A stretch of DNA of 64,000 nt from Candidatus Woykebacteria bacterium (GCA_040876265.1 JBBDPN010000001.1:118208-182207), one strand, 5' to 3'; shown: positions 9,981 through 52,511, counted from the stretch's first letter. Translations and numbers: made by a program. Notes: a model not told the origin generated them from the sequence alone.

Positions 9981-10670
9981 ATGGACAATCTGCCGTCTGC
10001 CCCGGAGGGTACTGAGCCACAAATAGAAGAAGATCACACTTCCGCCGAAACTCCTGTGGAAAGAGAACCGTCCAAGCCTTCTCCAGATGATTACGAGAAA
10101 GAGATGCTTAAAAATATAAATAGCGCCTTTGAGCAGGATGGTGCTGGTACGGAAGCGCATCGAGAAGAGGCTCGGCAGGAAGGGGTAGAAAAGGCAAAGG
10201 AATTACTGAGACCAGAAGAAGCATTAGATCCGACGCAGCCTGTTCCGGGGCGACCAATTCAATCCCAAGCTGATAGGTCTGAGGGTGAGGTAAACGAAGT
10301 AAGAGCAGGGGAGGCGGCAGTACCAGAAATATCGGTAAGAGAGGTGCAGCCATTACCTCCTCGACCAATAGAGAAGCAACCGCCTGTGTTAGCTGAAGAA
10401 GTAATGGAAAGACCACCGTCGCCATCTGTAGATGAGATGCCTGTCGGTCCACCTAGCCCCACCGAACCTCAGCAAGTGGAAATTTCGCAGGACGTACCTT
10501 CACAGATCCAGGAGAGACCACTGCCAGTTGTTGAACCCGCTCCTTCAAGATCAGACCCTTCTCCAGGGAGAGTACCAGCTGCAAAAAGACCAGATTTGGG
10601 TTTGGGTGATTCAGCGCCAACCATGTATAAGGAAAGACAAGAATTAAGGGCCGCGGCTGGCCAAAAGTAA
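9981..10670 (+). CDS. hypothetical Pro/Glu-rich low-complexity protein
   Basis: No TM helix and no catalytic motifs. Highly acidic and proline-rich. Lies directly upstream of the ATPase. Confidence 0.4.
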   Translation: MDNLPSAPEGTEPQIEEDHTSAETPVEREPSKPSPDDYEKEMLKNINSAFEQDGAGTEAHREEARQEGVEKAKELLRPEEALDPTQPVPGRPIQSQADRSEGEVNEVRAGEAAVPEISVREVQPLPPRPIEKQPPVLAEEVMERPPSPSVDEMPVGPPSPTEPQQVEISQDVPSQIQERPLPVVEPAPSRSDPSPGRVPAAKRPDLGLGDSAPTMYKERQELRAAAGQK

Positions 10671-10673
10671 TAT

Positions 10674-13217
10674 ATGCAACTATTAATTACTATCGTCACT
10701 GTATTTTTCTTTTTTATCTTCTTTTTTATTCTCATCATTGCTCTGGCGATGCTGCTTCGTTTTCGGAACCGAAAAGAAAAATCACTCGAATACACTCAAC
10801 TTGAAGTTAAACTCCCTCGGAACAACGAAATAAAAATAGAGTCAACTGAAAGTTTTTTCACCTCGCTTTACAGTTTGTTTCGGCATGGTGTTCAGGGGTT
10901 TTTATCAGGTCAGGAGCATATCGGTTTTGAGATAGTATCTCAAGGAGGAGTAATAAAATTTTTTGTTACTGCGCCAAATCCACTGCTTTCCTTGGTCGAA
11001 AAGCAAATACATTCTTTTTACCCGGAAGCAGAAATTAATTCGGTGGAGGAATACAACATTTTTCAGCCCGGTCTCTATGTTGATCTGGTCGAACTTTCTT
11101 TACGCTCCCCAGCCTTCCGACCGATAATTCGCTACAACCAATTGAAGGAAGTCGAGACGATGAACGCGATTACGACCGCGATGAGTAAGCTCGATAGTGA
11201 AGAAGCGATGGCGTTACAAATACTTATTTCTCCGGCTGGAATTGGGTGGCAGGGTGCTGGTTTTTCCCAGATACACAAGGCGCAAACAGTTGAGAAAAAG
11301 GGAATAATGACGCCATTTAATTTACCTCCCTCCTACCAACAGCAGCAAGAGGCTCCACCGCAACCGGAAGCGAGAACCGAAAGTATTACTCAGGAACCTT
11401 ACAAAAAAATTGAGGAAAAAGTCTCTAAGCCTGGATTTGAGACGGTAATACGAATTGTGGTTTCAGCGAAAAATAAGCTGACCGCTCTCGCCTACATAGA
11501 AAACATGGTTGGGGCTTTTGGTCAATTTAATGATCCGACCGCCAATGGTTTCAGAAAACGTCGGTTTCCCTGGACTCTCACGAAAGTTCTTTCCTTGCGC
11601 CAATTTATTTATAAAATGATGCCTTTTTGGTTTGGTAAAATGATTTTAAACTCAGAAGAACTAGCAACCATATTTCATTTTCCAAACAAAAACGTGGTAA
11701 CACCAAATATTGATTGGCTGCTTTACAAAAAGGCAGCCGCTCCAAACGTAGTGCCAAAAGAAGGGCTTTATCTTGGAAAAAGCATATTCCGAGGTGTAGA
11801 AACAAAAATCTATATTCAGCCAGATGATCGCCGGCGCCACATGTATATTATTGGGCAAACCGGTACCGGGAAGAGCGAATTTATGAAAATTATGGCGGTC
11901 CAGGATATAAAAGAGGGTAAAGGGGTTTGCTTTATAGATCCTCACGGAGGTGCGATTGAGGATATTTTGTTACAAATTCCACCGGAGCGGGCCGAAGATG
12001 TAATTCTTTTCGACGCTGGTGATACCGAAAGACCTCTTGGGATAAATATTCTAGAAACTCGGACTGAAGAGGGGAAACACCAAATGGTAAACCATTTCAT
12101 CCACCTTCTTTACAAACTTTATGACCCAAAGCGCACCGGTATCATGGGTCCGCGACTCGAGCGAGCAATCCGAAATGTGATGCTCACGGCAATGAGTGAG
12201 CCAGGTAGTACCTTGGTTGAAGTCCTGCGGCTGCTGATCGATCCTCAGTTTGTGAAAGAAACCCTACCAAAAGTTACCGACCCGTTAGTTCGTCGCTACT
12301 GGACTGATGAGGTGGCCCAAACCACCACTTTTCACAAAAGTGAAGTAATGGGTTATTTTGTTTCCAAATTTGATCGTTTTGTGACTGAAAAGCTAATGCG
12401 AAATATTATTGGGCAAAGCAAAAGCGCTTTTGATTTTCGGGACGTGATGGATAGTGGCAAAATTCTCCTTGTTGATCTATCAAAAGGAAAAATAGGCGAG
12501 GAAAATTCTAACTTTCTTGGGCTTGTGCTCGTACCGCGTATTTTGGTTGCGGCGATGAGTAGGGTGGATGTGCCCGAAGAGCAGCGACGAGATTTTCACC
12601 TTTACGTGGATGAGTTTCAAAATTTTGCCACTCCTGATTTTGCCCAGATACTTTCAGAGGCCCGAAAATACCATCTGGATTTGACGGTGGCCAATCAATT
12701 TATCGCCCAAATACAGGAGGAGGGAATACGCGAAGCCGTATTTGGTAACGTGGGTACCCTGATTGCTTTTCGGGTTGGCGTGGACGATGCTAAGTATTTG
12801 GAGTTCCAATTTGATCCGGTATTCAAAAAAGAAGATTTGATCAATAACGCTTTAGGGCACGCCTACGTCCGACTGCTTGTCGACGGGCAGCCCTCGTATC
12901 CATTTTCCATGGCGACAGATTGGGAAATGATGCAGGCGGTTACCAGAAACAAAGAAGTCGCCGAATCTATCGTCGAGCTGTCAAGGCTCAAATACGGTCG
13001 CGATCGGCAAATAGTTGAGGCGGAGATAAACCAACGAGCCGGCCTCGACGAGACGCCCACCACCATGCCAGAACCAGCTAAACCAGTTCCACCCCAAGCT
13101 GCCAAATCCGCCCCGACGCAACAACCGTTGCCGCAAGCCCAACCAGTTCAACAACCCACACCAGCCGTTCAAGAAACTTCCCTTCAACAAAACCTCCAAA
13201 AAACCGGAGGCGGGTAA
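10674..13217 (+). CDS. membrane-anchored P-loop ATPase of the FtsK/HerA/VirB4/TrwB (T4SS coupling protein-like) superfamily
   Basis: N-terminal TM helix. Walker A GQTGTGKSEF (compare TrwB GATGTGKS), Walker B HLYVDEFQNF, and EARKYHLDLTVANQ (RKY-type motif of DUF87/VirB4/HerA). Gln/Pro-rich C-terminal tail. Paralog of 34633..37401. Confidence 0.7.
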   Translation: MQLLITIVTVFFFFIFFFILIIALAMLLRFRNRKEKSLEYTQLEVKLPRNNEIKIESTESFFTSLYSLFRHGVQGFLSGQEHIGFEIVSQGGVIKFFVTAPNPLLSLVEKQIHSFYPEAEINSVEEYNIFQPGLYVDLVELSLRSPAFRPIIRYNQLKEVETMNAITTAMSKLDSEEAMALQILISPAGIGWQGAGFSQIHKAQTVEKKGIMTPFNLPPSYQQQQEAPPQPEARTESITQEPYKKIEEKVSKPGFETVIRIVVSAKNKLTALAYIENMVGAFGQFNDPTANGFRKRRFPWTLTKVLSLRQFIYKMMPFWFGKMILNSEELATIFHFPNKNVVTPNIDWLLYKKAAAPNVVPKEGLYLGKSIFRGVETKIYIQPDDRRRHMYIIGQTGTGKSEFMKIMAVQDIKEGKGVCFIDPHGGAIEDILLQIPPERAEDVILFDAGDTERPLGINILETRTEEGKHQMVNHFIHLLYKLYDPKRTGIMGPRLERAIRNVMLTAMSEPGSTLVEVLRLLIDPQFVKETLPKVTDPLVRRYWTDEVAQTTTFHKSEVMGYFVSKFDRFVTEKLMRNIIGQSKSAFDFRDVMDSGKILLVDLSKGKIGEENSNFLGLVLVPRILVAAMSRVDVPEEQRRDFHLYVDEFQNFATPDFAQILSEARKYHLDLTVANQFIAQIQEEGIREAVFGNVGTLIAFRVGVDDAKYLEFQFDPVFKKEDLINNALGHAYVRLLVDGQPSYPFSMATDWEMMQAVTRNKEVAESIVELSRLKYGRDRQIVEAEINQRAGLDETPTTMPEPAKPVPPQAAKSAPTQQPLPQAQPVQQPTPAVQETSLQQNLQKTGGG

Positions 13218-14068
13218 TGAGTGAAGAAGCCCCTGGTCCAAGTGAAGAAGATTTGAGCCCAAGTGATTTGGAGAGCGACGGGGGAGAGAAAGGCGAATCG
13301 GGATTTGAGGCTAAGAGATTTTTGGATTCTGAGAAGAGCAGGATCTCAGATGAATGGAAAGCGGCTGTAGTCGAGTCGATTGAGCAAAGCAATGAATTTG
13401 GTAAAAACCCATTAAAACCAGTTATTCAGCAATACTACGATGGTTCTTCAGCTTCTCACGCTGTTCAGTGCGCGACCAATAGGGTGGTTTATAGCGGGTT
13501 TATGAGTGAGACACTTCAAGGAGTTCTTGAGTCCGAAGAAAGCGCAGGCGCAGAAAAAGAAATTGCCGCCGAAATACTTCCAGAAGTCGAGTTTCAAAAT
13601 CAGCTGAATTCTACCTTGTCGCAGTTGATGGTTGCCGATCTTTTGACTTACAAACAAGTTCACGACCCCGCTTATCCAGCAGAGAAGAAAATAGGGATTG
13701 TCGATAGCGATCCAAAAAGAGAGCGGGGGAGTTTCCCGATTGTCTCTCGGGAGCTACAAAGACTAAAATCTGACCTTGAAAAGTTACAACCGCAGTTGCG
13801 GGCCAGACTAGAGAGTCTGCACGAAAAATATCCTGATGAATTTTCAGAAAATCCCCAAGTTGCTGAAATCTACGAAAGATTTATAGCTGAGACAAAAAGT
13901 GCAGGCCAGATGGTTGAAGCGGCAGTGCAAGCCAATGATGTTGGCCAAGCCAGCGATCTAGACATAGCAATGAAAAGGCTAGTCGGCCATTTTGCAGATG
14001 GCGCATTTGTCGCCGAAGACGTCGTCAGCGCACATGCTTTAAGAAAAATGAAAGAGGTAGAGAAGTGA
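13217..14068 (+). CDS. hypothetical acidic protein translationally coupled to the ATPase
   Basis: Its ATG overlaps the ATPase stop (TAATG). No recognisable motifs. Confidence 0.45.
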   Translation: MSEEAPGPSEEDLSPSDLESDGGEKGESGFEAKRFLDSEKSRISDEWKAAVVESIEQSNEFGKNPLKPVIQQYYDGSSASHAVQCATNRVVYSGFMSETLQGVLESEESAGAEKEIAAEILPEVEFQNQLNSTLSQLMVADLLTYKQVHDPAYPAEKKIGIVDSDPKRERGSFPIVSRELQRLKSDLEKLQPQLRARLESLHEKYPDEFSENPQVAEIYERFIAETKSAGQMVEAAVQANDVGQASDLDIAMKRLVGHFADGAFVAEDVVSAHALRKMKEVEK

Positions 14069-14425: not shown

Positions 14426-16756
14426 TTAACCTCCTGGTTGTAGTATTCTTCTAGCTTGTTCCAATCCTTCGGGAGTCAAGACATTGAAATTACCACCAGC
14501 TGGTACCCAGTGAAGAGCCTCGGTGAGTTGGTGCATCGCTACTGGGTCACCAGCTTCCGCTTGGGTGACCAAAGTTGCAATCTCTGCTTGAGTAGGGAAG
14601 TCTTCGACGGGTATTCCAGAAGCGGCAACATTGGTATGCATCTCCTGAAGCATATCATAATTGGCTTGGATGTGAGCGCCAAAAAGCTGCGCATTATCCG
14701 GGCCCCAGTCGATACTATGACCAGAATTGGCGAGTAATTCACCAACAGTAGTTCCTTGAGGTATTTCGACAGATTGGGCAAATTCTGGATTTGCTAGTAC
14801 CTCTGAGAGTGTTGGTGCTTCTGCCACAGGTGGTTGGTCAACACCAGTGGGTACTTCTTCTCCTGGTGTTACCACATCTCCTGGTTCAGGCTCGGGTGTT
14901 GGTGTAGGTGTTGGTGTCTCTTCCGGTACTGGAACTGGTTCAGGAGTTGGGGTTTCAGTGGGTACGGCAGCTTCTTCACCAGGTCCAACTGGACCGTGCT
15001 GCTCGCCAGGACCATGAACATGGGCAGCGTCGCCACCTCCACGGGTTGCATCAAACAGGTCCCAGCCTAGGGAACCCAAACTAGTAATCATTGAAATACC
15101 TCGCATACCGGCAGTAAAACTTCTTAATACGTTGTTATAATTTGCAAATCGGGTGTTCAGTGTTTCGAGGAGACTTATTTGAGCTGCTCGGGAGAGATCC
15201 GTGGCCCAGTTTTCGGCTTGTCCTTTCTTAAGCAGAGATTGTCTGGTTACCTCATTCATAGTCGCGTCGTATCTATCTAGCTCCCCACTTTCTTTGTATT
15301 TCAAAGCCTCTTCAGATCTTTTGACAAGGATCTCGACTTTTGACTCATCCTCGATACCAGCTCTGTCTCTAAATATTTTCCTCATGTTGCTTAGTCGAAA
15401 CTTGTCAATAATACTGCTACCGACCCGACTCAAACCAACACCAACTAACGAGCGTAAAAACCTGCTGGCAAATATACCAGAGCCAGGAAGGAGAAGGGTT
15501 GGTAGGACAGTGGTTACGCCACCAACGGCTCCGCCGGTTAGCCACGCAGCCAAATTTTTGTCACTTAAGTTAATATTATCCAGCGCGGCTCTACCTTGAT
15601 TTAAAAGAAGTCTGCCGACAGGAGTTTTCTCAATACCTTCCTTTAGAGCTGCTCTTTTCTTGTCCAGAGCGCTTTCCTCGCGTTTCTCAGGTTTTTCTTG
15701 GAAACGCTCATGAGCCCGTGCCCTTTTTTGTCTTTCCTTTTCAGCCCTGGTCTCCTCTTTACTGAGTACTTTATCCTCTTGTTTCGACTCTTCTTGAATA
15801 GTTTTTTGCTCAGCCGCACCTTTATAACGATCAGCCATTGCTTGAGCAAGCATATTTTGTGTTTCAAAACTATCTTTATGGTATGTTTGGCCGTTCTCAT
15901 CTTGCAGTGTGAAAAGTTCGCGGTGGGGAGGTACATCTTCTGTTTCTCGTCTCAAGATTGTGTAAGTGTGATGACCAACAGTAAAACTGTTTACCTTACC
16001 TTCCTCGGTTCCCAGCTGGTCAAAAGTATTTTGGACTTGTTGTCGAGTACTTTCATCATAAAGTTCTGGGCGCTGACCACTCAGCAGCCCTCTTAATCTC
16101 GTACCGATCCTGCTGGCCCATTCCTGAAATGCAGATTGGTTTGCTGGTACTTCTTGGTCGGTAACTATGTGGCCTTGAGCCTTACCTACCAGATCCTCTA
16201 CAGCCTGTTGCGGACCCTCAGGTTCTTCAGGGACCTTTTCAGTTGGTTCTTCTGGGGGTGGGGGAGGGCTTGGTGCACCTTCATCACCCTCAGGTTGTGA
16301 CTCTACTGGTGGGGAGGCATCTTCTGGTGCTGGCATCGGCGGCAATTCCTCTTCAGCTTTTTCTGTTGGATACTCGATCTCATCCAAGGGGACCCCAGCA
16401 TCAGATCCTCCAACACTTATATAATGTCGGCCCTCTTTTTCGCCGAGGTATCCAAGTACTGTGATCGGTTGATCGGTGTCTTTGTTTTTCCAGGTAGCTT
16501 CGCCTAGTTTGATATCAGGTGGTTGTTCTGCTTGTGCACCAGGACCATTTGCCCTCAAATCTTCAAGTTGCTCACGAGAAGCGGCAGGTTCGCCGTCGTG
16601 TCCTTCTTCAGACCCGTCTTTTTTCCTGCCTTTATCTGGGGGTTTTCTGCCGGGAGAAGCTTCAAATTGGATATTTTGATCCTCTGGGTCGTTATCGACC
16701 GCACTGTCTAGCGATTCGTCTTGAGGAAGTTCTGGGCCGGTTTCTGGTAGCATCAA
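14426..16756 (-). CDS. large hypothetical protein (776 aa) with acidic/Pro-rich disordered regions, PT-repeat linkers and a central hydrophobic segment
   Basis: PTETPTPEPVPVPEETPTPTPTPEPEP linker and a PPPPPEEPTEKVPEEPE stretch. Hydrophobic segment GGAVGGVTTVLPTLLLPGSGIF. No catalytic motifs. Confidence 0.5.
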   Translation of the reverse strand: MMLPETGPELPQDESLDSAVDNDPEDQNIQFEASPGRKPPDKGRKKDGSEEGHDGEPAASREQLEDLRANGPGAQAEQPPDIKLGEATWKNKDTDQPITVLGYLGEKEGRHYISVGGSDAGVPLDEIEYPTEKAEEELPPMPAPEDASPPVESQPEGDEGAPSPPPPPEEPTEKVPEEPEGPQQAVEDLVGKAQGHIVTDQEVPANQSAFQEWASRIGTRLRGLLSGQRPELYDESTRQQVQNTFDQLGTEEGKVNSFTVGHHTYTILRRETEDVPPHRELFTLQDENGQTYHKDSFETQNMLAQAMADRYKGAAEQKTIQEESKQEDKVLSKEETRAEKERQKRARAHERFQEKPEKREESALDKKRAALKEGIEKTPVGRLLLNQGRAALDNINLSDKNLAAWLTGGAVGGVTTVLPTLLLPGSGIFASRFLRSLVGVGLSRVGSSIIDKFRLSNMRKIFRDRAGIEDESKVEILVKRSEEALKYKESGELDRYDATMNEVTRQSLLKKGQAENWATDLSRAAQISLLETLNTRFANYNNVLRSFTAGMRGISMITSLGSLGWDLFDATRGGGDAAHVHGPGEQHGPVGPGEEAAVPTETPTPEPVPVPEETPTPTPTPEPEPGDVVTPGEEVPTGVDQPPVAEAPTLSEVLANPEFAQSVEIPQGTTVGELLANSGHSIDWGPDNAQLFGAHIQANYDMLQEMHTNVAASGIPVEDFPTQAEIATLVTQAEAGDPVAMHQLTEALHWVPAGGNFNVLTPEGLEQARRILQPGG

Positions 16757-32634: not shown

Positions 32635-33657
32635 ATGAACACCGTAAGAGCCGCCCGAACCCCAATCTGGGAAAAACAAAAATCAAAGAAAAAACGAGCC
32701 AGAATTATCAGATTAGCTATTTTCATAGTGATTTTGTTTGTTTTGGTAAATCTGGTAATTAAACTGCCTGGAGTATACAAGGACCTGAACACCCCTTTCC
32801 CGCAACTACCGAGAACAGAAGAAAGAAATTTCAGTGTGGATGTTTCTTTCCGAACGAATATATTGCTGGTTTCTTTTGAAGACGAAAATCGCTTGGTAGA
32901 TACCGCGATAGCTACCTACGAGCCGGTGGATAAAAAACTGAGTGTTGTTTTTTTCGATCTGGGAGAGCTTAAAAAGCTTCGCATCAAAACAAATAATGTT
33001 TTCAGAAACCAAGGGATAGATGGGCTGGAGCAATTTGTAACTAGTGGTTTGGGTGTGCCAATCGATGGCTATCTTGCCTTTGAGGACCCAACGCTGAGGT
33101 TTGATAGTAAGAACACAGCGGCAGCGGTCGAGAGTATGAAAAGTGTTGTAGCTCCCTTCAAATTGATTTCCGCTAAGGGTGATTTAAACAATACACTAAA
33201 AACTGATTTAACCTCAGGTCAACTACTTAAGCTAGTCTTTGTGGTAAGAGGAGCAAATTATTCTGAGGATAACAATTTTTCACTTACCGATAGAGACACT
33301 GGTAATTTGCAAACTGAGAAAATAGACGACCTAATAGCGGGTTTATTTTTCGATCAAAAAGTTTTGCAAGAGGGAGCGGCGATTACGATAGTAAACGCTT
33401 CTCAGGTGATAGGGGTCGGTAGTACTCTTGGTCGATATTTAACCAACCTTGGAGCTAACGTTGTAGGTATAGAGGCTCAAGAGAGCGTCAGCAAAGAAAC
33501 CCGCTTAATTGTTCAGAATGAAAAACCAGAAGTTACGAAGAGATTGGAATCTATATTAAAATTTAAAAAGGAGAGGGCGAGGGATGAAGATCAATTTCCT
33601 GGTGATATCCAAATTATCATCGGTCGGGACGAGGCTGAGAAGTTGACTTTACCTTAG
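32635..33657 (+). CDS. LytR-CpsA-Psr (LCP) family cell-envelope phosphotransferase-like protein
   Basis: Basic N-terminus with a TM anchor. LCP-like core (RTNILLVSFEDENR...DTAIATY). Confidence 0.5.
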   Translation: MNTVRAARTPIWEKQKSKKKRARIIRLAIFIVILFVLVNLVIKLPGVYKDLNTPFPQLPRTEERNFSVDVSFRTNILLVSFEDENRLVDTAIATYEPVDKKLSVVFFDLGELKKLRIKTNNVFRNQGIDGLEQFVTSGLGVPIDGYLAFEDPTLRFDSKNTAAAVESMKSVVAPFKLISAKGDLNNTLKTDLTSGQLLKLVFVVRGANYSEDNNFSLTDRDTGNLQTEKIDDLIAGLFFDQKVLQEGAAITIVNASQVIGVGSTLGRYLTNLGANVVGIEAQESVSKETRLIVQNEKPEVTKRLESILKFKKERARDEDQFPGDIQIIIGRDEAEKLTLP

Positions 33658-33734
33658 AGGTTTTGGTATAATAAATGTGATCTCTCTCCTTTCTTCCGAG
33701 GAACGGCCAAAATTAGCCGTTCCTAAAGATGAGA

Positions 33735-33764
33735 AGCCCCGCTTTGCGGGGTTTCTCGTATTTT
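33735..33764 (+). terminator. Intrinsic terminator-like hairpin (GCCCCGC-TTT-GCGGGG) followed by a T-rich tract
   Basis: Read directly, downstream of the LCP gene. Confidence 0.45.
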
Positions 33765-33771
33765 GGGGTGG

Positions 33772-33801
33772 TTGACTAAACAGGGGCCGAATAAATACAA
33801 T
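33772..33801 (+). promoter_or_regulatory. sigma70-like promoter (TTGACT-18-TACAAT) ahead of locus 2; the mRNA is nearly leaderless
   Basis: Hexamers read directly. The ATG at 33810 lies 8 nt after the -10. Confidence 0.45.
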
Positions 33802-33809
33802 ATATCTTA

Positions 33810-34496
33810 ATGCCAAAAGAACTTTCTCACGAGGCGGATCCGGAGCATGTTCCTGACGTAGTTTTTGCCTCACCGTTTGAATTAAAACCACGCAGAGTAC
33901 TGGTAACGCTACTTATTGGTGCTATCATAATTGCGCTTGGGTTTATCGGTTACTACGCAATCGAGACCTTCTTCCTAAAAGAGGCAACTCCACTGCCACC
34001 GATTGTAATAAAGAGTGGCACCCAAACCGCCCAAAAAGCCACTTCCTCCGCCAAAAAATCCGAAACAACGAAGTTAACGAAAAGTTTTAAAGATAGTTTT
34101 TATAATATTTCGTTCAACTATCCAGAAAACTGGGAGGAGAAATCAAAATCTGAGGTAGAAGCTTGTCAACCTAGTGTTGGCCCCAAGGACATAAAAAACT
34201 CTGGTTTCAGTATTTGCGAATTTGGACTGAGTTCAGTTGAAGATACAGCTAATATACCGGATAAGAGTGTAGTTTCCTTGCGGAAAAGTTTAACTGTAGG
34301 GGGTAAAAGTGCTGTTAGGCAAGTTGTGACGGAAAACAGTAAAGACCAGGTGTTTGCTTACGTAGGAGGTGTGACTCACAGCAATCAATCTGGGACATTA
34401 ACAATAATCGGTTGGTCAGAAAATAGCGGTCTAACAACAAGTGAGTTTGTAAACTTATTTGACCAAATTCTTTCAACGTTCAAACCCCTTGATTAG
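33810..34496 (+). CDS. hypothetical secreted protein (TM anchor plus a Ser/Thr/Lys-rich linker)
   Basis: ORF with an N-terminal TM helix. No motifs. Confidence 0.45.
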   Translation: MPKELSHEADPEHVPDVVFASPFELKPRRVLVTLLIGAIIIALGFIGYYAIETFFLKEATPLPPIVIKSGTQTAQKATSSAKKSETTKLTKSFKDSFYNISFNYPENWEEKSKSEVEACQPSVGPKDIKNSGFSICEFGLSSVEDTANIPDKSVVSLRKSLTVGGKSAVRQVVTENSKDQVFAYVGGVTHSNQSGTLTIIGWSENSGLTTSEFVNLFDQILSTFKPLD

Positions 34497-34632
34497 TCGT
34501 TAGTTATAAGCTCCAAGTTTTAAGTAGTAAGCCCTCAGTTCTAAACCTCTTATAACTCGTTGACTTTTAGGTTCGTTTGAGATAAAATTTGGCATGTTGT
34601 AGAATTAAAAGGAGAGGTAGAGAGAGGTTTTT

Positions 34633-37401
34633 ATGTTTATAGCGATCATAGCCGCTATTTTGATCATATCATTTTTGCTGGCCTGGAGAGCGGCCAGAAA
34701 ACTGGAGGGAGGCAAATCCTCGGAAATTTCTAATGGGGTTCTTCTTTCCATTTCACTTCCACGCGAAAATGAAAAGCTTCCAACCGCCGCCGAGCAAATG
34801 TTTGCTTCTCTTCACGGTATTTTAGACTTTACTCCTGGAATACAAGAGCATTTATCACTTGAAATGGCCAGCTCTTTGGATGGAATAAAGTTTTATGTTT
34901 TTGCCCCGACGGCTTTTAAAAATTTCGTCGAGAGTCAAATCTACGCTCAATACCCGGACGCTGAGATACGAGAGGCGGTAGACTACGCTAAAAGTATTCC
35001 GGCAGGCAGCTTTGTTTCATCCACAGAGATAGTTCTCGATAAAGAATTTATATTTCCAATTAAAACATTTCGTGACTTCGAAGTAGATCCGCTTGCGGCT
35101 ATCACCAGCGCTTTGGTTAGTGTCCAGCCTGGGGAACAACTTTGGGTCCAGTTGCTGGTGCGGCCAGTTGATGATTTTTGGCAAGACAGAGGTCACGAAT
35201 ACGTCCAAATGGTTCGGGAGGGAGTTTCGCCAGTTACACTTAGCCCCCAAGACATTATTATTGATGTTGGCAAAAGTTTTATGTCAATTGGTGGCAATGT
35301 CGCTACCCACATTATGAAGGGGCCGCAGCCTTACGAGGAACCAAGGGGTGGGGTACAGCAGTACGTGCGACTTTCGGCTGGGCAAGAGCTGACTTTAAAG
35401 ATGCTTGAAAACAAGTTGTCTAAGATAGGCTTTGAGACGAAAATTCGTCTGGTTGCCGTTTCAAACTCGAAAGAGGGTGCCGAGTCCAGACTATCTGGTC
35501 TGATCAGCTCGTTTAAACAATACGCCACCGCCAACCTAAATAGTTTCGTCGCCGACCCCGAAAGTCCGGAACCAGACACCCTGGTTAAGCAGTATCAAGA
35601 CAGGAGTTTTCCGGAGAGAGAAGCTGGAAATTACATTTTGACAACCGAGGAGCTAGCTTCCATCTACCACCTTCCAAATGTATCGGTAGAGACACCAACT
35701 ATTAGCTGGACGGGTGCCAAAAAAGGCGAACCCCCGCTAAATATACCTACGACTTCAGCGACGATGCTCGGCGAGACTTACTACCGAGACTACAGAACAA
35801 AATTTGGAATTAAAAGAAGTGATCGAAGAAAGCACATGTATATTATTGGTAAGACAGGTACGGGAAAAAGTACGCTAATAAAAAACATGATAATACAGGA
35901 TATGAGGTCTGGTGAGGGAGTCGCCGTGCTTGATCCTCACGGGCAGCTTATCGACGAGTTGCTCGAATTTGTGCCCGAGAACCGGATAGAGGACGTGGTA
36001 ATCTTAAACCCAGCTGATGCTGAATACCCAATTTCCCTAAACATGTTGGAAATGGTAGATCCAAAGCAGCGCACGTTGATGGGCGATACGATGTTGGATG
36101 TTTTTAAAAAATATTTTGCTGATAGCTGGGGTCCCAGGCTTGAATATATTTTAAAAAATTGTATTCTAACGCTATTAGAAGTTCCAAACACGTCGCTCCT
36201 TTCTGTTACTAGACTTTTGACAGATCGAGATTACAGAAAGCACATAGTAGGGCTAATTAAAGATCCGCAAATGAAACTTTTTTGGAATAATGAATTTGCT
36301 CGTATGGAACAAAACGAGAGGTTGATCACCGAAGCTATTAGTCCAATTCAAAACAAAGTCGGTCAATTTTTAAATTCTGAATTGATTAGAAATATTGTCG
36401 GTCAACCAAAAAGTAGTATCAAAATGGATGATATTATTAATTCCGGAAAGCTTTTCTTTATAAATTTGGCGACGGGAAGAATCGGCGGTAATAATACGGC
36501 GTTGCTTGGCGCCATGATTGTTTCCCAACTGCAGTTTGCGGCGATGAGACGCGTGGATGTTCCCGAAGAACAAAGACGGGATTTCTTTCTTTACGCTGAC
36601 GAATTCCAAAACTTTGCTACCGATTCCTTTGCGACAGTTTTATCTGAAGCAAGAAAATATCGCCTTGATCTTACCTTGACCCACCAGTATATTGAGCAAA
36701 TGCCCGAGACAGTAAAGGAAGCTGTGTTTGGTAATATAGGGACTCTCATTTGTTTTACAGTTGGACCGACCGACGCTCGTTTTTTGGAGCGGGAGTTTAC
36801 CCCAGTCTTTCTGGAAAATGATCTAATTACTTTGGGTAGGTACGAGATGTATCTAAAATTGCAAATAGATGATACTCAAAGCCAGCCTTTTTCCGCAGTT
36901 AGCCTAGCTCCGGCGACCGATGCGACTAATACTAAAGAAAGAGCTATTTCTGCTTCTAGGACAAAGTACGGTCGTGGTGTGGAGAACGTAGAAAAAATTA
37001 TCAAAAAATGGATCGAAACAAGATTTAAGGCTGGCCAACCGCCACAACCGCCAGCTTGGGCAACAGCAGAGGAGACGAGAATCAAAGAATCTCCGGTCGA
37101 GGGTGACAAAAAGGAAGAGGAGGCCATGGTTATCGGTACGCAGAAAAGTGAGGGTGTTTATACACCACCAAAACCCTTTACTAGGGAGAGTATTCCGGGG
37201 TTATCGGCCGAAAGTAGCCCGGAGACTACAGGTTTAAGACCGCAAGAGGCGGATAATGGAGAAGTTGATATATACAGATTTCCGGAAATAAACACCCAAC
37301 CAGAAGCTGCACAGCAAGACGCAAAAGTACCTGGAGGGAGTTCGGGCCATGAAAGAACCGACGATTATCATGGGAAGCAAAACTTTCCCAAGGATACATA
37401 A
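34633..37401 (+). CDS. membrane-anchored FtsK/HerA/VirB4/TrwB-superfamily P-loop ATPase, paralog of 10674..13217
   Basis: Same architecture and motifs as locus 1: RRKHMYIIGKTGTGKST, DFFLYADEFQNFATD, EARKYRLDLTLTHQ, AVFGNIGTLICFTVG. Collinear similarity along the N-terminal domain as well. Confidence 0.7.
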   Translation: MFIAIIAAILIISFLLAWRAARKLEGGKSSEISNGVLLSISLPRENEKLPTAAEQMFASLHGILDFTPGIQEHLSLEMASSLDGIKFYVFAPTAFKNFVESQIYAQYPDAEIREAVDYAKSIPAGSFVSSTEIVLDKEFIFPIKTFRDFEVDPLAAITSALVSVQPGEQLWVQLLVRPVDDFWQDRGHEYVQMVREGVSPVTLSPQDIIIDVGKSFMSIGGNVATHIMKGPQPYEEPRGGVQQYVRLSAGQELTLKMLENKLSKIGFETKIRLVAVSNSKEGAESRLSGLISSFKQYATANLNSFVADPESPEPDTLVKQYQDRSFPEREAGNYILTTEELASIYHLPNVSVETPTISWTGAKKGEPPLNIPTTSATMLGETYYRDYRTKFGIKRSDRRKHMYIIGKTGTGKSTLIKNMIIQDMRSGEGVAVLDPHGQLIDELLEFVPENRIEDVVILNPADAEYPISLNMLEMVDPKQRTLMGDTMLDVFKKYFADSWGPRLEYILKNCILTLLEVPNTSLLSVTRLLTDRDYRKHIVGLIKDPQMKLFWNNEFARMEQNERLITEAISPIQNKVGQFLNSELIRNIVGQPKSSIKMDDIINSGKLFFINLATGRIGGNNTALLGAMIVSQLQFAAMRRVDVPEEQRRDFFLYADEFQNFATDSFATVLSEARKYRLDLTLTHQYIEQMPETVKEAVFGNIGTLICFTVGPTDARFLEREFTPVFLENDLITLGRYEMYLKLQIDDTQSQPFSAVSLAPATDATNTKERAISASRTKYGRGVENVEKIIKKWIETRFKAGQPPQPPAWATAEETRIKESPVEGDKKEEEAMVIGTQKSEGVYTPPKPFTRESIPGLSAESSPETTGLRPQEADNGEVDIYRFPEINTQPEAAQQDAKVPGGSSGHERTDDYHGKQNFPKDT

Positions 37402-37428
37402 TACAAATTTGACGAAAGGAGGCCACCC

Positions 37429-38160
37429 GTGTCAGCAAACAAAATTGATCTTATAAGACAAGCGCTTTCAGCAGCGGAAAGTAGTATAAAATTAGCTAGA
37501 CAGCTACTCTCTGAAATTGAATCTGAAAAAGGTAAGGGAAGACAAAGAGCAAAGGAACTGCCTGGGCTGGTAGGGATATTCGACGGTAAGGACATGACTA
37601 CTGAAAAAGGGGAAAAACACCCAGTTCCAGAAAACTACGCGTCCAAAAGTATTTTAGTGGTAGGGGACACATTAAAATTGGTTGAGGGTGGTGGAGAAAA
37701 GAGATTTAAACAAATAGAGCATGTAAAGAGGCACAAAACTACTGGGATTTTGGCCAAAAAGGAAGGCAAATGGACTGCAGTGACGTCCGAAGGTTCTTAC
37801 CGACTTTTACCGGCTGCGGTTGATCACTTTGGAGGGGATGTCAGTGACGAGGTGCTAATACAGTTGCCGGCAAGCAATCTCCAAACTACTTGGGCGGCGG
37901 TAGAAAAAATAATGAAAAAAGGGCCGTCTCAGAAAGGGGAAGATAAGAAACCACCGGTGGCTGAGGAAAAAGTAAAAATAGAGAAAAAAGAAGAAGAAGT
38001 TAGAGGTAAAAGCGAGGCTAAAGAAGATGGGAAAGACAAACTACCACAAAAGACTGAGCAACCGAAGGAGGAAAAAGAGCCAGAGAAGAGTAAACCAGAA
38101 GTCAAGGAAGATGTAAAAGAGCCTGTAGCCGCTACCACAACCGAAGAGGAGCTACAATGA
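37429..38160 (+). CDS. hypothetical protein with a Lys/Glu-rich low-complexity C-terminus
   Basis: Begins 27 nt after the ATPase stop. No motifs. Confidence 0.45.
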   Translation: MSANKIDLIRQALSAAESSIKLARQLLSEIESEKGKGRQRAKELPGLVGIFDGKDMTTEKGEKHPVPENYASKSILVVGDTLKLVEGGGEKRFKQIEHVKRHKTTGILAKKEGKWTAVTSEGSYRLLPAAVDHFGGDVSDEVLIQLPASNLQTTWAAVEKIMKKGPSQKGEDKKPPVAEEKVKIEKKEEEVRGKSEAKEDGKDKLPQKTEQPKEEKEPEKSKPEVKEDVKEPVAATTTEEELQ

Positions 38161-38162
38161 AT

Positions 38163-39008
38163 CTATTCTTCTAAATCATCGTCGGCTTCGCGTTCTTTCT
38201 CGGCAAGGGATTCCAAAGATTGATCTTGGTTGCTAGAGAGAAGTGTAGAAACCTCTACTTCTTCGATATCATCATCAGCCTCTGTCGGTAGAGGAGCCTG
38301 GCTTGAAAGTAAGTTCAGAGTTTCTTCTCGGACATAGGGGGTGAAAGGGGAGTTGGTAGTAGGAAACGGGGAAGAGGATACTTTTTTTGATCTATAGACC
38401 TCGCGTAAAAAAATTGCGACCTGAGGCTTTGGGTTTTCCGATTTTTCGCTCTTTATATATACCGATTTGATAATCCCTTCAAACTTACTTCCTATTTTGA
38501 TATCTTGCATCATTCTTTTTGCTAAACCCCCCGGGATCTTACCAAGCCTTCTACCACCGCTAGAAAGGACTACAAGATTGCTTTTTTGAGGAGAAAGCTG
38601 AGTTTTATCACCGGTTCGCAAGGCTACTAAAATCGAAGTCATAGCGGTATCCTCCAAAATACTGGTGCAAGTTTTGCCCGATTCTTCCAAAAATAAGTCA
38701 CCTTTTAGCGACGAAAAAATCTGACCCTCGTTAACCTCTGTTTTTCTTATCGAAGATAGTTTAGCTAGGTTTTTAGCGGCTATGGAATTGTAGGGATCCA
38801 ACTCCAACACTTTCCTATAAAGTTTCTTTGACTCAGCAACTTTTCCTGTCTCAGCGAGAGATCTAGCTAACCTATTGAGAGTATCCACATCTTCGGGGTA
38901 TTTCTTTAACAGTTCCTGATTTAGTTGTAGGGCCTTTTGCCAATTGTTTTCCAAAGCAGCATCTATTGCTTCGTCAACTAAAGGATCGATTGATATCTGA
39001 CTAACCAT
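38163..39008 (-). CDS. TPR-repeat protein
   Basis: N-terminal TPR-like helices (ALQLNQELLKKYPEDVDTLNRLARSLAETGKVAESKKLYRKVLELDPYN). C-terminal region unassigned. Confidence 0.5.
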   Translation of the reverse strand: MVSQISIDPLVDEAIDAALENNWQKALQLNQELLKKYPEDVDTLNRLARSLAETGKVAESKKLYRKVLELDPYNSIAAKNLAKLSSIRKTEVNEGQIFSSLKGDLFLEESGKTCTSILEDTAMTSILVALRTGDKTQLSPQKSNLVVLSSGGRRLGKIPGGLAKRMMQDIKIGSKFEGIIKSVYIKSEKSENPKPQVAIFLREVYRSKKVSSSPFPTTNSPFTPYVREETLNLLSSQAPLPTEADDDIEEVEVSTLLSSNQDQSLESLAEKEREADDDLEE

Positions 39009-42305: not shown

Positions 42306-43247
42306 ATGCTGCCGCACATCGAAGATTTTCTTTTATCCTTGCAGACTAACAACTATTCCCCCGAAACTGTCTATAATTATGATCGTGATTTAAAAGTTTT
42401 CGACCAATTTTTATCCGAAGCTGGCACTTCCTTTGATAAAGTTGATAAAACCACCATCGCCCGCTATAAGGCCTACCTCACGTCTCGCGACAGAAAAACG
42501 CCAATTAGCTTGAAAGAACAAGAAAAAATTCTAGTTTCACGTTCGGTAAATAGAATGCTGTCTAGTTTACGCAGCTTCTTAAAATTCCTTATTGAGATGG
42601 ATAAGCCGGTGCCCGTGCCGCCAGAAGCAGTGAAGCTAACCAAGACGGAGAGAAAGCACCCACAGGTGGCTGAGATGAACGAACTGATCAGCCTTATTGA
42701 GGCTCCAAATAAGTTTGAGAAAGATAAGCTAGTGACGCTGCGTAATCGGGCGATACTTGAAGTCCTTTTTGCCACCGGTATGCGCATTTCGGAACTTTGT
42801 TCATTAAATAGAAACCAGATTGACGATTCTGGAAAAATATTTATTATGGGTAAGGGTAAGAAGCAGAGGTTCGTCTATCTCACGCCCCGTGCTACCGAGC
42901 ATCTAAATAGGTACCTTTCTACCCGAAAGGACATTCTACCCGCTCTTTTTATCCCCTATGCCGGTCAAAATGTGAATAGCGCCAAAAAAAGAATCGCGAC
43001 AAATTATTTACAAGCTAAGATAAAGGAGTATCGGGAGAAATTGAAAATAAACGTTCCTACGAGTGCTCACAGTCTGCGGCATGGCTTTGCGACGTACCTG
43101 GCGGAGGAGGGAGCCTCACCAGCGGCAATTCAGATCCTTCTTGGTCACGAGTCGCTGGATACGACTACCCGTTATGTTCACGCCAGTGATCGCTTCGCCC
43201 AAGAAACTCACCGCAAATACCACCCCCTGGCTGAGGCTGATGATTAA
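42306..43247 (+). CDS. tyrosine site-specific recombinase, XerC/XerD-like
   Basis: Tyrosine recombinase catalytic residues in ATGMRISE, HSLRHGFATYL and LLGHESLDTTTRYVH. Confidence 0.8.
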   Translation: MLPHIEDFLLSLQTNNYSPETVYNYDRDLKVFDQFLSEAGTSFDKVDKTTIARYKAYLTSRDRKTPISLKEQEKILVSRSVNRMLSSLRSFLKFLIEMDKPVPVPPEAVKLTKTERKHPQVAEMNELISLIEAPNKFEKDKLVTLRNRAILEVLFATGMRISELCSLNRNQIDDSGKIFIMGKGKKQRFVYLTPRATEHLNRYLSTRKDILPALFIPYAGQNVNSAKKRIATNYLQAKIKEYREKLKINVPTSAHSLRHGFATYLAEEGASPAAIQILLGHESLDTTTRYVHASDRFAQETHRKYHPLAEADD

Positions 43248-50252: not shown

Positions 50253-52511
50253 TTAACGTTTCACCCCCTTAAATAATGCCCTCCTTGTCAATGAAAATAC
50301 TATTCCAAGTGCCACCGGATACATCAAGTTCATGAGATTGAAATCATCAAACAGCCCTCTCTCAGAGTTGAAGCGGGCTATTGGCGGAGCTTGTCCATCG
50401 TTATCCGTACCTAGAACCAGTGTTTGTACATCTGCATCTCCAGGTGATTTAGCTGTGTTTGATCCACCGTTTGTTTCAAGGCTAGGTCCACTAGCTGCTC
50501 CAAATGCAAGTAGCGTCTGATTTGCTCCGTTTATAGTAGAGCTGGTCGGTCTGGAAGAACTTTTACTGCTACTTGCGGATTTGCTGAGAGGCTCGTTGAT
50601 ATTTACACCAGACAGGGTTTTTTCGCCGTTCACGATGTCGCCGTTAAACTGACCAAAAATATTCACAATTGTCAGTAAAAATCTGCTGCCAATGAAGGTA
50701 TTGTTTAGAAAGTTGGCGATGTTGGCAGCTATATTTACGTCACCGGTTTTTATCGAACCGCTTCCTGTATTGTATGAAGCACTATTATCACCAGTGTTCG
50801 CATTTAGGTTTACGTTGTTTACGAGCGTTCCAGTGTTGTTGACAGTGATATCAGTTTCGTTCTCGACATTATTTGCTGCTTCATTGAAACTATCTGCACC
50901 AGTGGTATCATTGGCCGCTACTATACTTCCGTCTGGGTTTACAGTGAAAGTGAAGAATGGTGAGTAGACGCTGCCCTGCTCCCCTCCGAAGAGCTGTCCT
51001 GTCCAACTACCCATGTTGTTTATAAGTACCATCCAGATATCGCCACCGCTGCCAACTGCCGAGGTGTTGGCTACAGTAGAGACGTTTAAGTTTGCATCCA
51101 CATCACCAGTGTCGATGTAACCACCACCGGTGTTTTTACTGGCGTCATTACCACCAGTGTTGCCGTTTAAATTTACATTGTTCTGTACGTCGGCAAGGTT
51201 GTTGAGGTCGATACTGGTATTGTTGCTTGTTGAATTGTTTGCTGTATTTTCTGAACCCGCGCCGGTAGTTGAATTACCAGCTAGTAAGTCTAAACCAGAA
51301 CCATTGGTACCTGTTCCACCTTCATTTATACCTTTTAGAACGATATCTCCGTCCAGGGTGCCAAAAATGTTCACCACTCCCAGCAGCAGTTCTCCGCCAC
51401 CGCCAAGAAACACATTATTGAGGAAGTTTATAAGGTTAAAAGCAATGTTGGCATCCCCGGTCGTAACGCTTCCGTTGCCAGTATTTTTATCAGCAGTATT
51501 GTTTCCTGTATTTGAGGTGAGGTCATAATTATTTATTAAGTTTCCGAAATTATCGACCAATATAGTGTTTGAGTTGTTCGAAGTGTTAGTTGCGCTGTTT
51601 AAAGAATCTTCTCCAGTAGCATTGTTTCCAGCAAAGGCACCACCGCCCGGAATATAAGTGGGGGTTATTTTGCTGTAATCAATGACGATATCGCCGGTCT
51701 GATCATCCATTACGTTGAAGACAGAGGCGCCAACGTTTACGTTGTTAGCTGTATTTACGGCCGTTAATATTACGTCAGAGTCACCGGTGGTAACTATCCC
51801 GTTCCCTGTGTTTTTATCAGCGCTATTGTTACCTGTGTTGCTATCAAAATCAACATAGTTGTAAAGATCGGCGTCATTATCTATACTCGTGCCCGTTTCA
51901 TTGTTTGTATTATTGTCGGCCATATTAAATGATCCAGAGCCTGTCTTATCATTTGCCGCTTCTAGATCCTTTATACTTACAGTTCCACAACTGCCACCGC
52001 TTCCACATGAGCCCACCGAACCAATGCTAATAGTGTTAGCGGTTGTTTCGACGTTGCCTGCTAAGCTAGCGTTTCCAGTATTGACTAGACCGTTCCCAGT
52101 ATTTTTATTAGCACTGTTGTCGCCGGTATTACTATCTCCCTCAACCAGATTATCTATTTTAGCTGTATTATTTATATCGGTGTTACTCGTATTATTAGTG
52201 TTCGTACCAGCTTCGTTGTAAGAATCTGCGCCGGTATTGCTGTTTATTGCTGCCGCGGCAGCTGCAGCCTCAGCGGCGGCCTTTTTAGCCTCCTGACCAG
52301 CCTTCCATTGCTGGTACCAATTATTTGGATCTTTCCAATTTACTTCTTGAGTTGTGCTAGTTGTCTGGGTTGACGGAGTGGCTTCTTGGGCCATCACTAC
52401 GCTAGCCGGAAGCACAAAAGTATAAGAAAATGCAACAAGGACACTTATAAATATGCGTAATATTTTATTTCTTAAGTTAGTTCTCATCTTCTCGTTATTC
52501 TTTAAGGGCAT
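50253..52511 (-). CDS. large secreted Asn/Thr/Gly-rich repeat protein, paralogous to its neighbours
   Basis: Signal peptide. Many degenerate copies of the same module (SNTGDNSANKNTGNGxVTTGDA). C-terminal hydrophobic segment plus basic tail, with no LPxTG. Confidence 0.6.
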   Translation of the reverse strand: MPLKNNEKMRTNLRNKILRIFISVLVAFSYTFVLPASVVMAQEATPSTQTTSTTQEVNWKDPNNWYQQWKAGQEAKKAAAEAAAAAAAINSNTGADSYNEAGTNTNNTSNTDINNTAKIDNLVEGDSNTGDNSANKNTGNGLVNTGNASLAGNVETTANTISIGSVGSCGSGGSCGTVSIKDLEAANDKTGSGSFNMADNNTNNETGTSIDNDADLYNYVDFDSNTGNNSADKNTGNGIVTTGDSDVILTAVNTANNVNVGASVFNVMDDQTGDIVIDYSKITPTYIPGGGAFAGNNATGEDSLNSATNTSNNSNTILVDNFGNLINNYDLTSNTGNNTADKNTGNGSVTTGDANIAFNLINFLNNVFLGGGGELLLGVVNIFGTLDGDIVLKGINEGGTGTNGSGLDLLAGNSTTGAGSENTANNSTSNNTSIDLNNLADVQNNVNLNGNTGGNDASKNTGGGYIDTGDVDANLNVSTVANTSAVGSGGDIWMVLINNMGSWTGQLFGGEQGSVYSPFFTFTVNPDGSIVAANDTTGADSFNEAANNVENETDITVNNTGTLVNNVNLNANTGDNSASYNTGSGSIKTGDVNIAANIANFLNNTFIGSRFLLTIVNIFGQFNGDIVNGEKTLSGVNINEPLSKSASSSKSSSRPTSSTINGANQTLLAFGAASGPSLETNGGSNTAKSPGDADVQTLVLGTDNDGQAPPIARFNSERGLFDDFNLMNLMYPVALGIVFSLTRRALFKGVKR

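Follow-up and report, generated by a model that had tools for sequence, protein, structure and literature searches.

A chromosomal coupling protein-family ATPase with a predicted OB-fold partner in Candidatus Woykebacteria

The chromosome of a Candidatus Woykebacteria bacterium encodes two large ATPases, A1 at locus 1 and A2 at locus 2, within a stretch of 64,000 nucleotides (GCA_040876265.1 JBBDPN010000001.1:118208-182207), here called the window. Judged by their sequences both are ATPases of the kind that comprises type IV coupling proteins (T4CPs), HerA and FtsK, and both are members of the VirD4/TraD/TrwB family. What does such a motor do in this chromosome, and is locus 2 one copy of a duplicated functional module, as a first-pass annotation had proposed, or just a gene of a mobile element? 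On balance we favor the interpretation that A2 is a chromosomal, non-mobile motor of the T4CP family, which has a VirB4-like N-terminal domain and handles single-stranded nucleic acid at the membrane together with dn2, a partner protein with oligonucleotide/oligosaccharide-binding (OB) folds.

A2 is identical to a protein from a metagenome-assembled genome (MAG), encoded on a contig of 532 kb, that NCBI names 'type IV secretion system DNA-binding domain-containing protein [Candidatus Woykebacteria]'; the name of A1 is 'DUF87 domain-containing protein [Candidatus Woykebacteria]'. In Pfam, A2 matched TrwB_AAD_bind (E 1.5e-12; 47.5 bits, cut-off 20.5) and T4SS-DNA_transf (25.5 bits, cut-off 20.1), A1 matched TraG-D_C (26.9 bits, cut-off 22), and a partial DUF87 match exceeded the cut-off of 23.2 bits in both proteins (29.7 bits for A2 and 31.8 bits for A1). 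The TrwB_AAD_bind alignment extends over residues 395-694 of A2 and positions 11-290 of the 387 profile positions, and the distance from Walker A to Walker B is about 240 residues. A sequence search of the PDB gave weak matches to TrwB and DotL as the sole meaningful ones. The TraD and VirD4 families of NCBIfam also matched weakly and far under their equivalog cut-offs. None of the T4CP equivalogs SXT_TraD, conj_TOL_TraD, conju_CD1115 and TraD_Ftype reached its curated cut-off, the best scores being 47.5 bits against 250 for conju_CD1115 and 54.8 bits against 366 for SXT_TraD. Compared with VirB4 (TrwK of R388; PDB 7o42 and 8rtd), the ATPase domain of A1 and A2 scores as a T4CP and not as VirB4: CagE_TrbE_VirB was not matched, and TIGR00929 gave 19.9 bits against a cut-off of 643 and for A1 only. 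A profile comparison with a VirB4-like protein aligned the ATPase domain alone.

The predicted architecture of A2 (Table 1) begins with one transmembrane (TM) helix followed by the sequence RAARK, and by the positive-inside rule the rest of the protein is predicted to be cytoplasmic. T4CPs of the TrwB type usually have two TM helices. The domain next to the helix is DUF8128 (PF26449), which is precomputed on the database proteins identical to the two paralogs (P0001 and P0241) and on nearly all homologs. It precedes the ATPase domain and a disordered acidic tail.

A2 had been described as collinear with the locus-1 ATPase along its whole length, with identical motifs and different C-terminal tails. 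BLASTP returned one collinear high-scoring segment pair, residues 38-792 of A2 against 43-787 of A1, with 36% identity over 779 amino acids and E 1e-151. The alignment spans the N-terminal domain of about 330 residues and thus goes well past similarity at the P-loop level, which bears out the collinearity. An alignment of A2 with its orthologs and the paralog showed the Walker A, Walker B and SEARKY residues of A2 as invariant. Taken as whole strings, SEARKY is the motif that is identical in the two paralogs, whereas Walker A reads GKTGTGKS in A2 and GQTGTGKS in A1 and Walker B reads LYADEFQNFAT in A2 and LYVDEFQNFAT in A1. The description of the tails was correct: the acidic, Pro/Gly-containing tail of A2 (123 residues) and the Gln/Pro-rich tail of A1 (58 residues) do not align. 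Measured from the last conserved motif, tails have a median length of 131 residues in A2 orthologs and 17 residues in A1 orthologs; the Gln/Pro-rich tail of A1 is a local feature, since most A1 orthologs end about 17 residues after the motif. The tails of 33 of 116 A2 orthologs contain the motif [VIL][FY]RFP, and those of the Woykebacteria-level clade share PKPF[TV]RENIPG and GEVEI[FY]RFP.

For comparison we assembled 170 loci, designated by L numbers, from genome and metagenome scans and protein look-ups. The ATPases of these loci sort into an A2-type and an A1-type group. Neighbor-joining analysis of 140 non-redundant full-length sequences recovered the split in 50 of 50 bootstraps, in agreement with two diverged copies, and the mean p-distance between the groups (0.63) exceeded that within them (0.47-0.48). 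Since sequences were assigned to the groups by BLAST scores, the neighbor-joining test is partly dependent on these; the exact bipartition is robust all the same. Each clade spans several Patescibacteria lineages. Orthologs of A1 and A2 share contigs in several Woykebacteria (586188, 938369, 131449, 99571 and 56938 bp) and are found together in the CPR3 genome GWE2_35_7. An A1-type gene lies next to an A2-type gene in L107 and L110, and the two are near each other in L059. A1 and A2 are anciently diverged paralogs of a kind typical of Patescibacteria, which are vertically inherited and chromosomal. The A2-type gene is split in 23 loci of Parcubacteria-like lineages into a protein with the TM helix and DUF8128 and a following ATPase protein. 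The junction is constant and corresponds to residues 373-377 of A2, approximately, and the N-terminal protein ends with ...PPxLPxE. Haloarchaeal plasmids carry the gene split likewise. An alternative genetic code or a frameshift artefact was rejected as the origin of the split genes, since the stops are a mixture of TAA, TAG and TGA and often serial, the second open reading frame (ORF) begins with a Met of its own and the junction does not vary.

Residues 1-385 of A2 were modeled with AlphaFold2 at a mean predicted local distance difference test score (pLDDT) of 82. The model consists of the TM helix (residues 2-25) and an alpha/beta domain, and the best 14 Foldseek matches were all TrwK/VirB4 chains. 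Because no other P-loop proteins were found among the matches, we infer that the similarity belongs to the N-terminal domain of VirB4. At the sequence level, hhalign of DUF8128 against VirB4 N-terminal domains aligned the ATPase part only, and Pfam was empty up to E 10. HerA differs from A2 at this point, the modeled N-terminal domain of A2 being VirB4-like and not a HAS barrel.

Full-length homologs that include the N-terminal domain are located on plasmids of Streptomyces, Embleya, Priestia, haloarchaea (among them Natrinema) and Sulfolobus. The T4CP of the Embleya plasmid NZ_CP108778 is 28% identical to A2 over 711 amino acids (E 5e-77; N-terminal domain included), and its cluster has the order TrbL-like, PrgI, VirB4-like, T4CP homolog, Replic_Relax, NlpC/P60. 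On a Haloterrigena plasmid a VirB4-like gene is followed by a separate ORF for the N-terminal domain and by "VirD4". A1 and A2 therefore fall within the T4CP lineage that belongs to the conjugation systems of monoderms and archaea, and the VirB4-like N-terminal domain is common to the whole lineage. The VirD4-type T4CPs of these plasmids (Embleya NZ_CP108778 and haloarchaeal) resemble A1 and A2 in full-length homology, in the DUF8128-type N-terminal domain, in the Pfam signatures and in the N-terminal anchor, and the haloarchaeal division into two ORFs recurs in many Patescibacteria. The plasmid genes lie inside clusters of type IV secretion systems (T4SSs) beside VirB4-like, VirB6-like and relaxase-like genes, whereas A1 and A2 are chromosomal, form two ancient orthogroups, have no T4SS or relaxase gene within 64 kb and are associated with an OB-fold partner. 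Homologs of dn2 were not found in the Embleya and Haloterrigena T4SS clusters. Many of the plasmids with homologs are typed as non-mobilizable by MOB-suite. Large Bacillus phages carry full-length homologs as well, and phrog_5156, whose annotated function is unknown, matches at E 4e-84. Phage homologs with the N-terminal domain are G gp156 (JN638751 90946-93072), SP-10, 0305phi8-36 ORF201 and D6E.

The gene dn2 starts with GTG, 6 nt after AAAGGAGG, and is separated from A2 by 27 nt. In two relatives (L088 and L089) its homolog overlaps the stop of the ATPase gene. A2 and dn2 are probably co-transcribed as an operon. The AlphaFold2 model of dn2 contains an N-terminal helix (residues 3-33), two small beta-barrels (residues 46-162, pLDDT >90) and a disordered tail (pLDDT <50). 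The best structural neighbors of the model are S1 and cold-shock OB folds of RNA-binding proteins; sequence searches of Pfam, NCBIfam and PDB gave no match. The earlier characterization of the downstream protein as Lys/Glu-rich holds for the last 78 residues or so, but residues 1-165 form a conserved, folded domain with predicted tandem OB folds. All nine A2-ortholog loci that were retrieved through protein look-ups (L082-L090) encode a dn2 homolog with 34-63% identity over the first ~165 residues. Members of the family also directly follow A1-type ATPases in L106, L109 and L114 and lie between A1 and A2 in L110. A profile search of 1.84 billion representative proteins yielded 1,043 clusters, nearly all of 200-330 amino acids and with the domain at the N-terminus. 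The linker is hypervariable (18% K, 14% E, 13% P), and the tip has the form [DE][DE][DE]-L-[R/T/S] in 228 of 256 members (89%), with Leu at position -2 in 240 of the 256. These models and comparisons point to dn2 as a conserved cytoplasmic partner of A2 with a fold of the nucleic-acid-binding type. The layout of dn2 parallels that of SSB, a comparison that also took in T4SS-associated binders of single-stranded DNA such as VirE2 and HelP of ICEBs1: dn2 and SSB have OB domain(s), a hypervariable low-complexity linker and an acidic-hydrophobic tip. However, dn2 is not a member of the SSB family, from which it differs by the missing SSB Pfam match, by its S1/cold-shock neighbors, by a tip unlike DDDIPF and by the extra N-terminal helix.

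The base composition of the window is even, and the genes around the two loci are housekeeping genes, among them PrmC, PrfA, L31, HisRS, DnaB, EF-P, peptidases, Lgt, RluD, Kef, YebC, RuvC, Xer, glycogen/trehalose enzymes, a ClpB-like gene and RarA. Genes for VirB4, VirB6, pilins, relaxases or phage proteins were not found within the 64-kb window. Relatives with an A2 of 53-76% identity (Woykebacteria, one unclassified Patescibacteria MAG and CPR3) keep the order LytR_C, [variable], A2, dn2, (TPR, minus strand), YebC, RuvC, DUF5656, ... Xer. This housekeeping synteny holds down to 53-55% identity of the ATPase, and A2 is conserved at least as well as most of the flanking housekeeping genes; the identities in L088 are 60% for A2, 51% for YebC, 48% for RluD and 38% for RuvC. 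At locus 1, relatives preserve the synteny from PrfA-L31 to HisRS. Both ATPases thus have a place in conserved housekeeping synteny, which agrees with the proposal that they are not mobile-element genes, and locus 2 is not a mobile element. In other lineages the neighbors differ. In 12 loci the A1-type gene directly adjoins Xer and DivIC, in others it lies beside GyrB-GyrA, and in Saccharibacteria A2 is located between TopA and FtsQ-MurG-FtsW. In 72 loci of Saccharibacteria and of lineages with split genes, a DNA-binding protein of about 350 amino acids with Sigma70_r4 and HARE-HTH domains is encoded directly upstream of the A2-type ATPase; it is absent from the 64-kb window. The Saccharibacteria ORF had been considered as a counterpart of the LytR_C protein, which was rejected (hhalign probability 0.2%). 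A Xer-type tyrosine recombinase gene lies at 42306-43247, 5 kb downstream of locus 2, and in Woykebacteria and CPR3 it is found 5-7 genes downstream of A2.

In the mechanism that we propose, A2 would be a membrane-anchored hexamer, by analogy with TrwB and DotL. dn2 would bind single-stranded nucleic acid, either DNA or RNA, and may dock on A2 itself or on the A2 tail through its tip or its linker. Hydrolysis of ATP would then feed the substrate to, or receive it at, the membrane, and inner-membrane parts of a T4SS encoded elsewhere (VirB3, VirB8 or VirB4) would probably dock on the VirB4-like N-terminal domain. In conjugative elements the gene adjacent to that of the T4CP typically encodes a relaxase or an accessory DNA-binding protein (PMC12102498). 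dn2 may fill this place, and we read it as a relaxase-free substrate adaptor because an OB-fold protein, replaced in other classes by a helix-turn-helix protein, sits at the T4CP-adjacent position.

The same source (Quinonero-Coronel et al. 2025) lists 5,713 VirD4-type homologs in 2,918 of 3,035 Patescibacteria genomes (96%, ~1.96 per genome), of which 148 are near virB4, describes relaxases as nearly absent and already raises an exaptation of VirD4 homologs for other functions. By inference this published set is almost certainly the A1/A2 family. Several points weigh against our interpretation. The link to a T4SS is doubtful, as the 64-kb window contains no T4SS genes and, in the published data, T4CP homologs occur in 2,918 genomes and VirB4 in 2,417. 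The homolog of Southlakia epibionticum is reported there as non-essential, whereas the T4SS genes are essential (PMC12102498, citing Wang et al. 2023). The assignment of the VirB4 match to the N-terminal domain is deduced from the absence of other P-loop proteins among the Foldseek matches to the model. The dn2 family was not detected in the Saccharibacteria loci or in most A1-type loci of the 170-locus set and is hence not universal. Finally, the modeled dn2 folds have S1/cold-shock rather than SSB neighbors, so that dn2 could bind RNA or use the fold to bind protein.

Could A1 and A2 instead be ordinary coupling proteins of the Patescibacterial T4SS (MPF-FATA, essential for epibiotic growth), which recruit effectors or other cargo, with the OB protein as a secreted substrate? 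We regard this as a serious alternative, though an unlikely one. Their full-length homology to T4CPs of Actinobacteria and Archaea whose genes adjoin those for VirB4, VirB6 and relaxases agrees with it, as does the VirB4-like N-terminal domain, which suggests docking on T4SS inner-membrane parts. T4CP genes are often located away from virB4 (PMC12102498), and the long motif-bearing tail of A2 is similar to the adaptor-binding tails of TraD and DotL (PMC12857230). F TraD with TraM and Legionella DotL with DotM/N/Y/Z-IcmSW also combine such a disordered tail with a partner encoded alongside (PMC12857230), but the partner of A2 is unrelated to these adaptors in sequence and fold (tandem OB), and its interaction with A2 is putative. 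The published distribution speaks against an ordinary T4CP, with few homologs near virB4 and at least 501 more genomes for the T4CP than for VirB4, and so does the dispensable S. epibionticum homolog next to essential T4SS genes (both PMC12102498). Moreover, effector secretion alone leaves the conserved paralog pair, the housekeeping synteny and the partner of the nucleic-acid-binding type unexplained. The genomic setting, in which different lineages again and again have these genes next to genes of chromosome dynamics or division, would also suit a pair of T4SS-independent, FtsK-like DNA translocases that act at the membrane or septum in chromosome segregation, recombination or the resolution of dimers: in Woykebacteria and CPR3 A2 occurs together with YebC, RuvC and Xer, A1-type genes adjoin Xer and DivIC or GyrB-GyrA, the Saccharibacteria A2 lies among TopA and division genes, and the ATPase family is near-universal and strongly conserved. 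We nevertheless consider this improbable. FtsK/SpoIIIE proteins share with A1 and A2 the ATPase superfamily, the membrane anchor and neighbors such as Xer, topoisomerase and division genes, but A2 has no gamma domain, a single TM helix where FtsK/SpoIIIE have at least four, and the VirB4-like N-terminal domain. The FtsK_SpoIIIE profile scored 17.8 bits against a cut-off of 24 and matched residues 379-421 with Walker A only. BLAST with the E. coli FtsK motor found nothing in the window or the 170 loci, which says nothing on the rest of the genome. Housekeeping neighbors are partly expected in small genomes, the TM7x genome is annotated with a separate ftsK (PMC10768705), and the non-essential S. 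epibionticum homolog does not fit.

We see little chance that the pair is a DNA-uptake motor for competence or nucleotide scavenging, comparable to ComFA or the archaeal Ced ATPases, whose OB protein would protect incoming single-stranded DNA. Patescibacteria are naturally competent and do not synthesize nucleotides (PMC12857230), the partner has an OB fold and an SSB-like layout, and NCBIfam gave weak matches to CedD (E 2e-8) and CedB (E 1.5e-3). The Ced scores are far under the curated cut-offs (33 against 600 bits), however, competence of S. epibionticum is explained by type IV pili and ComEC (PMC12857230), and no com genes are linked at the locus. An origin as remnant of a conjugative element or prophage, or as a HerA-type defense ATPase, is in our opinion close to negligible, in spite of the homologs on plasmids and in Bacillus phages (phrog_5156), of PADLOC matches to mad8 and HerA in the ATPase domain (E 1e-13 to 1e-18) and of the tyrosine recombinase 5 kb downstream. 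The base composition is uniform, no relaxase, VirB4, phage gene or defense partner is present within 64 kb, and the housekeeping synteny is kept across lineages with ATPases only 53-76% identical. The recombinase is a conserved Xer-type neighbor, and the PADLOC matches are confined to the generic ATPase domain. With such matches only and no partner genes, an origin from a defense system or phage was rejected.

A candidate small structured RNA of about 86 nt is located upstream of locus 2. It consists of an invariant CU-rich 5' tail of 18 nt, GAUCUCUCUCCUUUCUUC, a covarying hairpin with the conserved loop CCAAAAUUAG and a terminator. The tail GAUCUCUCUCCUUUCUUC resembles the 3' end of 16S rRNA (anti-Shine-Dalgarno). 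The fold z-score is -5.6. In eight lineages the stem has 9 pairs with 98.6% of the cells paired, 8 of the pairs are changed on both sides, and none of 500 shuffles was equal. An exact 16-mer is present in one copy in each of 10 loci. The RNA always lies between the LytR_C gene and A2, in every A2-dn2 locus. Because it keeps this position and is encoded on the opposite strand in the CPR3 locus, the comparison of sequences argues for an independent RNA gene at 33679-33764, which we treat as a candidate. A search of Rfam gave no family, and a covariance model found no further copies; a match of the model antisense inside FtsH was spurious. Pairing with the ribosome-binding sites of A2 and dn2 involves 6-9 nt and is no better than an ordinary Shine-Dalgarno match. 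As a speculation to which we give only a slight chance, the block of small RNA, A2 and OB protein might be a domesticated, relaxase-free conjugation motor that moves single-stranded nucleic acid across the membrane of the epibiont to or from the host. Its cargo could even be the CU-rich RNA as a ribonucleoprotein with the OB protein, whose acidic tip would act as the signal for recruitment, and the VirB4-like N-terminal domain would plug the motor into the T4SS.

Patescibacteria, which grow on other cells, represent a large part of the diversity of bacteria, and to our knowledge their T4SS, in which relaxases are missing, is the first one shown to be essential for its bearer. The VirB4-like N-terminal domain provides a concrete hypothesis of how a T4CP docks within a T4SS, and the conserved OB partner makes the role of A2 easier to test. 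If the cargo is nucleic acid, a relaxase-independent, domesticated conjugation motor would be central to the epibiotic lifestyle. That a Patescibacteria genome carries about two VirD4-like genes without linkage to virB4 is already published (PMC12102498), and the proteins are annotated. Relative to the available text of that paper and to the searchable papers, new points are the division into two orthogroups, the resemblance of the DUF8128 fold to VirB4, the split genes, the conserved OB partner together with its tip and the RNA next to them. A literature search for DUF8128 found no papers.

The genes that flank the two ATPases do not support the duplicated mini-operon of the first-pass annotation, because the neighbors at one locus are not related to those at the other and up2, up1 and dn1 are not conserved in sequence. 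BLASTP against the ORFs of more than 170 loci found nothing for any of these three beyond the genome's own record; dn2, downstream at locus 2, is the sole flanking protein that is conserved together with the ATPase. The position of up1 is kept, as P/E/Q-rich ORFs of 181, 185 and 117 amino acids overlap the A1 start in L172-L174, but BLASTP among the up1-position ORFs of different genomes revealed no similarity. The proteins at the dn1 position (283, 314 or 991 amino acids) are likewise not conserved. The product of up2 had been called secreted; it matches PsbP_2 weakly and is better described as a membrane protein held by a signal anchor than as a classically secreted one. Relatives with an ATPase of 69-76% identity lack the gene or have others in its place. 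It is missing in L085-L090, unrelated small genes occupy its position in L082 and L083, and L083 has a PsbP_2-like gene downstream instead. By these comparisons up2 is a lineage-specific insertion outside the conserved module. The ATPase gene had also been assigned a promoter of its own and a near-leaderless mRNA. Such an mRNA is plausible from the sequence for up2, the 228-aa gene, only. For A2 it was rejected, because this gene has a normal Shine-Dalgarno sequence, AAGGAGAGG, 15 nt upstream, and promoter-like hexamers of its own. The promoter calls at locus 2 are consensus matches only, with 12 sites in the region against 5.9 +/- 2.4 in shuffles.

Table 1. Features of loci 1 and 2 in the window (nucleotide positions counted from its first letter) and of related loci
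Feature	Position or loci	Strand	Basis or remark
up1, 229-aa P/E-rich ORF, probably disordered	9981-10670	+	ends 3 nt before A1
A1, 847-aa paralog of A2	10674-13217	+	same architecture, short Q/P-rich tail
dn1, 283-aa acidic/helical protein	13217-14068	+	downstream of A1
LytR_C-domain membrane protein	32635-33657	+	Pfam; upstream neighbor of the small RNA-A2-dn2 block; same position in L082-L090
Near-consensus promoter-like site of small-RNA candidate	33643-33672	+	
Candidate small structured RNA, ~86 nt	33679-33764	+	between LytR_C gene and module
Promoter-like TTGACT-18-TACAAT	33772-33801	+	ends 8 nt before up2 ATG at 33810
up2, 228-aa signal-anchored protein	33810-34496	+	ORF call, weak PsbP_2-like Pfam match
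Promoter-like hexamers TTGACT-17-TAAAAT and TTGAGA-17-TAGAAT (34560-34605) and Shine-Dalgarno region AAGGAGAGG	34560-34627	+	upstream of A2
A2, 922-aa membrane-anchored T4CP-family ATPase	34633-37401	+	ORF call, Pfam
A2: N-terminal TM helix, aa 2-25, then RAARK	34636-34707	+	AlphaFold2 helix, block pLDDT 92-94; hydrophobic
A2: DUF8128 domain, aa ~35-345	34735-35667	+	predicted structure like VirB4 N-terminal domain
A2: T4CP-like P-loop ATPase domain, aa ~390-790	35800-37002	+	Pfam, NCBIfam T4CP matches
A2: Walker A GKTGTGKS, aa 406-413	35848-35871	+	
A2: Walker B D656-E657	36598-36603	+	
A2: SEARKY motif, aa 671-676		+	
A2: disordered acidic C-terminal tail, aa ~800-922, motifs PKPFTRESIPG and GEVDIYRFP	37030-37398	+	alignment
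dn2, 243-aa conserved partner protein of A2	37429-38160	+	ORF call
dn2: predicted tandem OB folds, aa ~44-165	37558-37923	+	
dn2: acidic tip EEELQ	38143-38157	+	
Small-RNA candidate in relatives	L082 8736-8787, L083 8885-8936, L085 9771-9821, L087 1936-1989, L088 9812-9862, L089 9913-9962, L090 3078-3129 (-)		
Split A2-type loci	L014, L019, L040, L051, L059, L065, L066, L069, L073, L075, L080, L136, L140, L144, L151, L158, L160, L163-L166, L170		
Xer-type recombinase beside A1-type ATPases	L092, L093, L096-L099, L101, L103, L105, L112, L119, L143		
Sigma70_r4 + HARE-HTH protein, examples	L158 6812-7837, L011, L016		often flanked by TopA or SecD-SecF

Some further genes of the window were recorded in the course of the comparison. 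A TPR protein encoded at 38163-39008 on the minus strand converges on dn2, ends with the acidic tail ...EREADDDLEE and keeps its position in six related loci. Two large minus-strand genes are without Pfam match. The 776-aa protein at 14426-16756 has a conserved C-terminal region in common with the 1078-aa protein that occupies this position in L173, and the 752-aa protein at 50253-52511 has positional counterparts in genes for 739-742 amino acids in L082 and L085. At 4655-7827 on the plus strand an HtrA-like protease, a 425-aa protein without Pfam match and a cohesin-domain protein are encoded in this order. Their counterparts in L172 and L173 bear dockerin and cohesin domains, which suggests a surface assembly based on cohesin-dockerin pairs.

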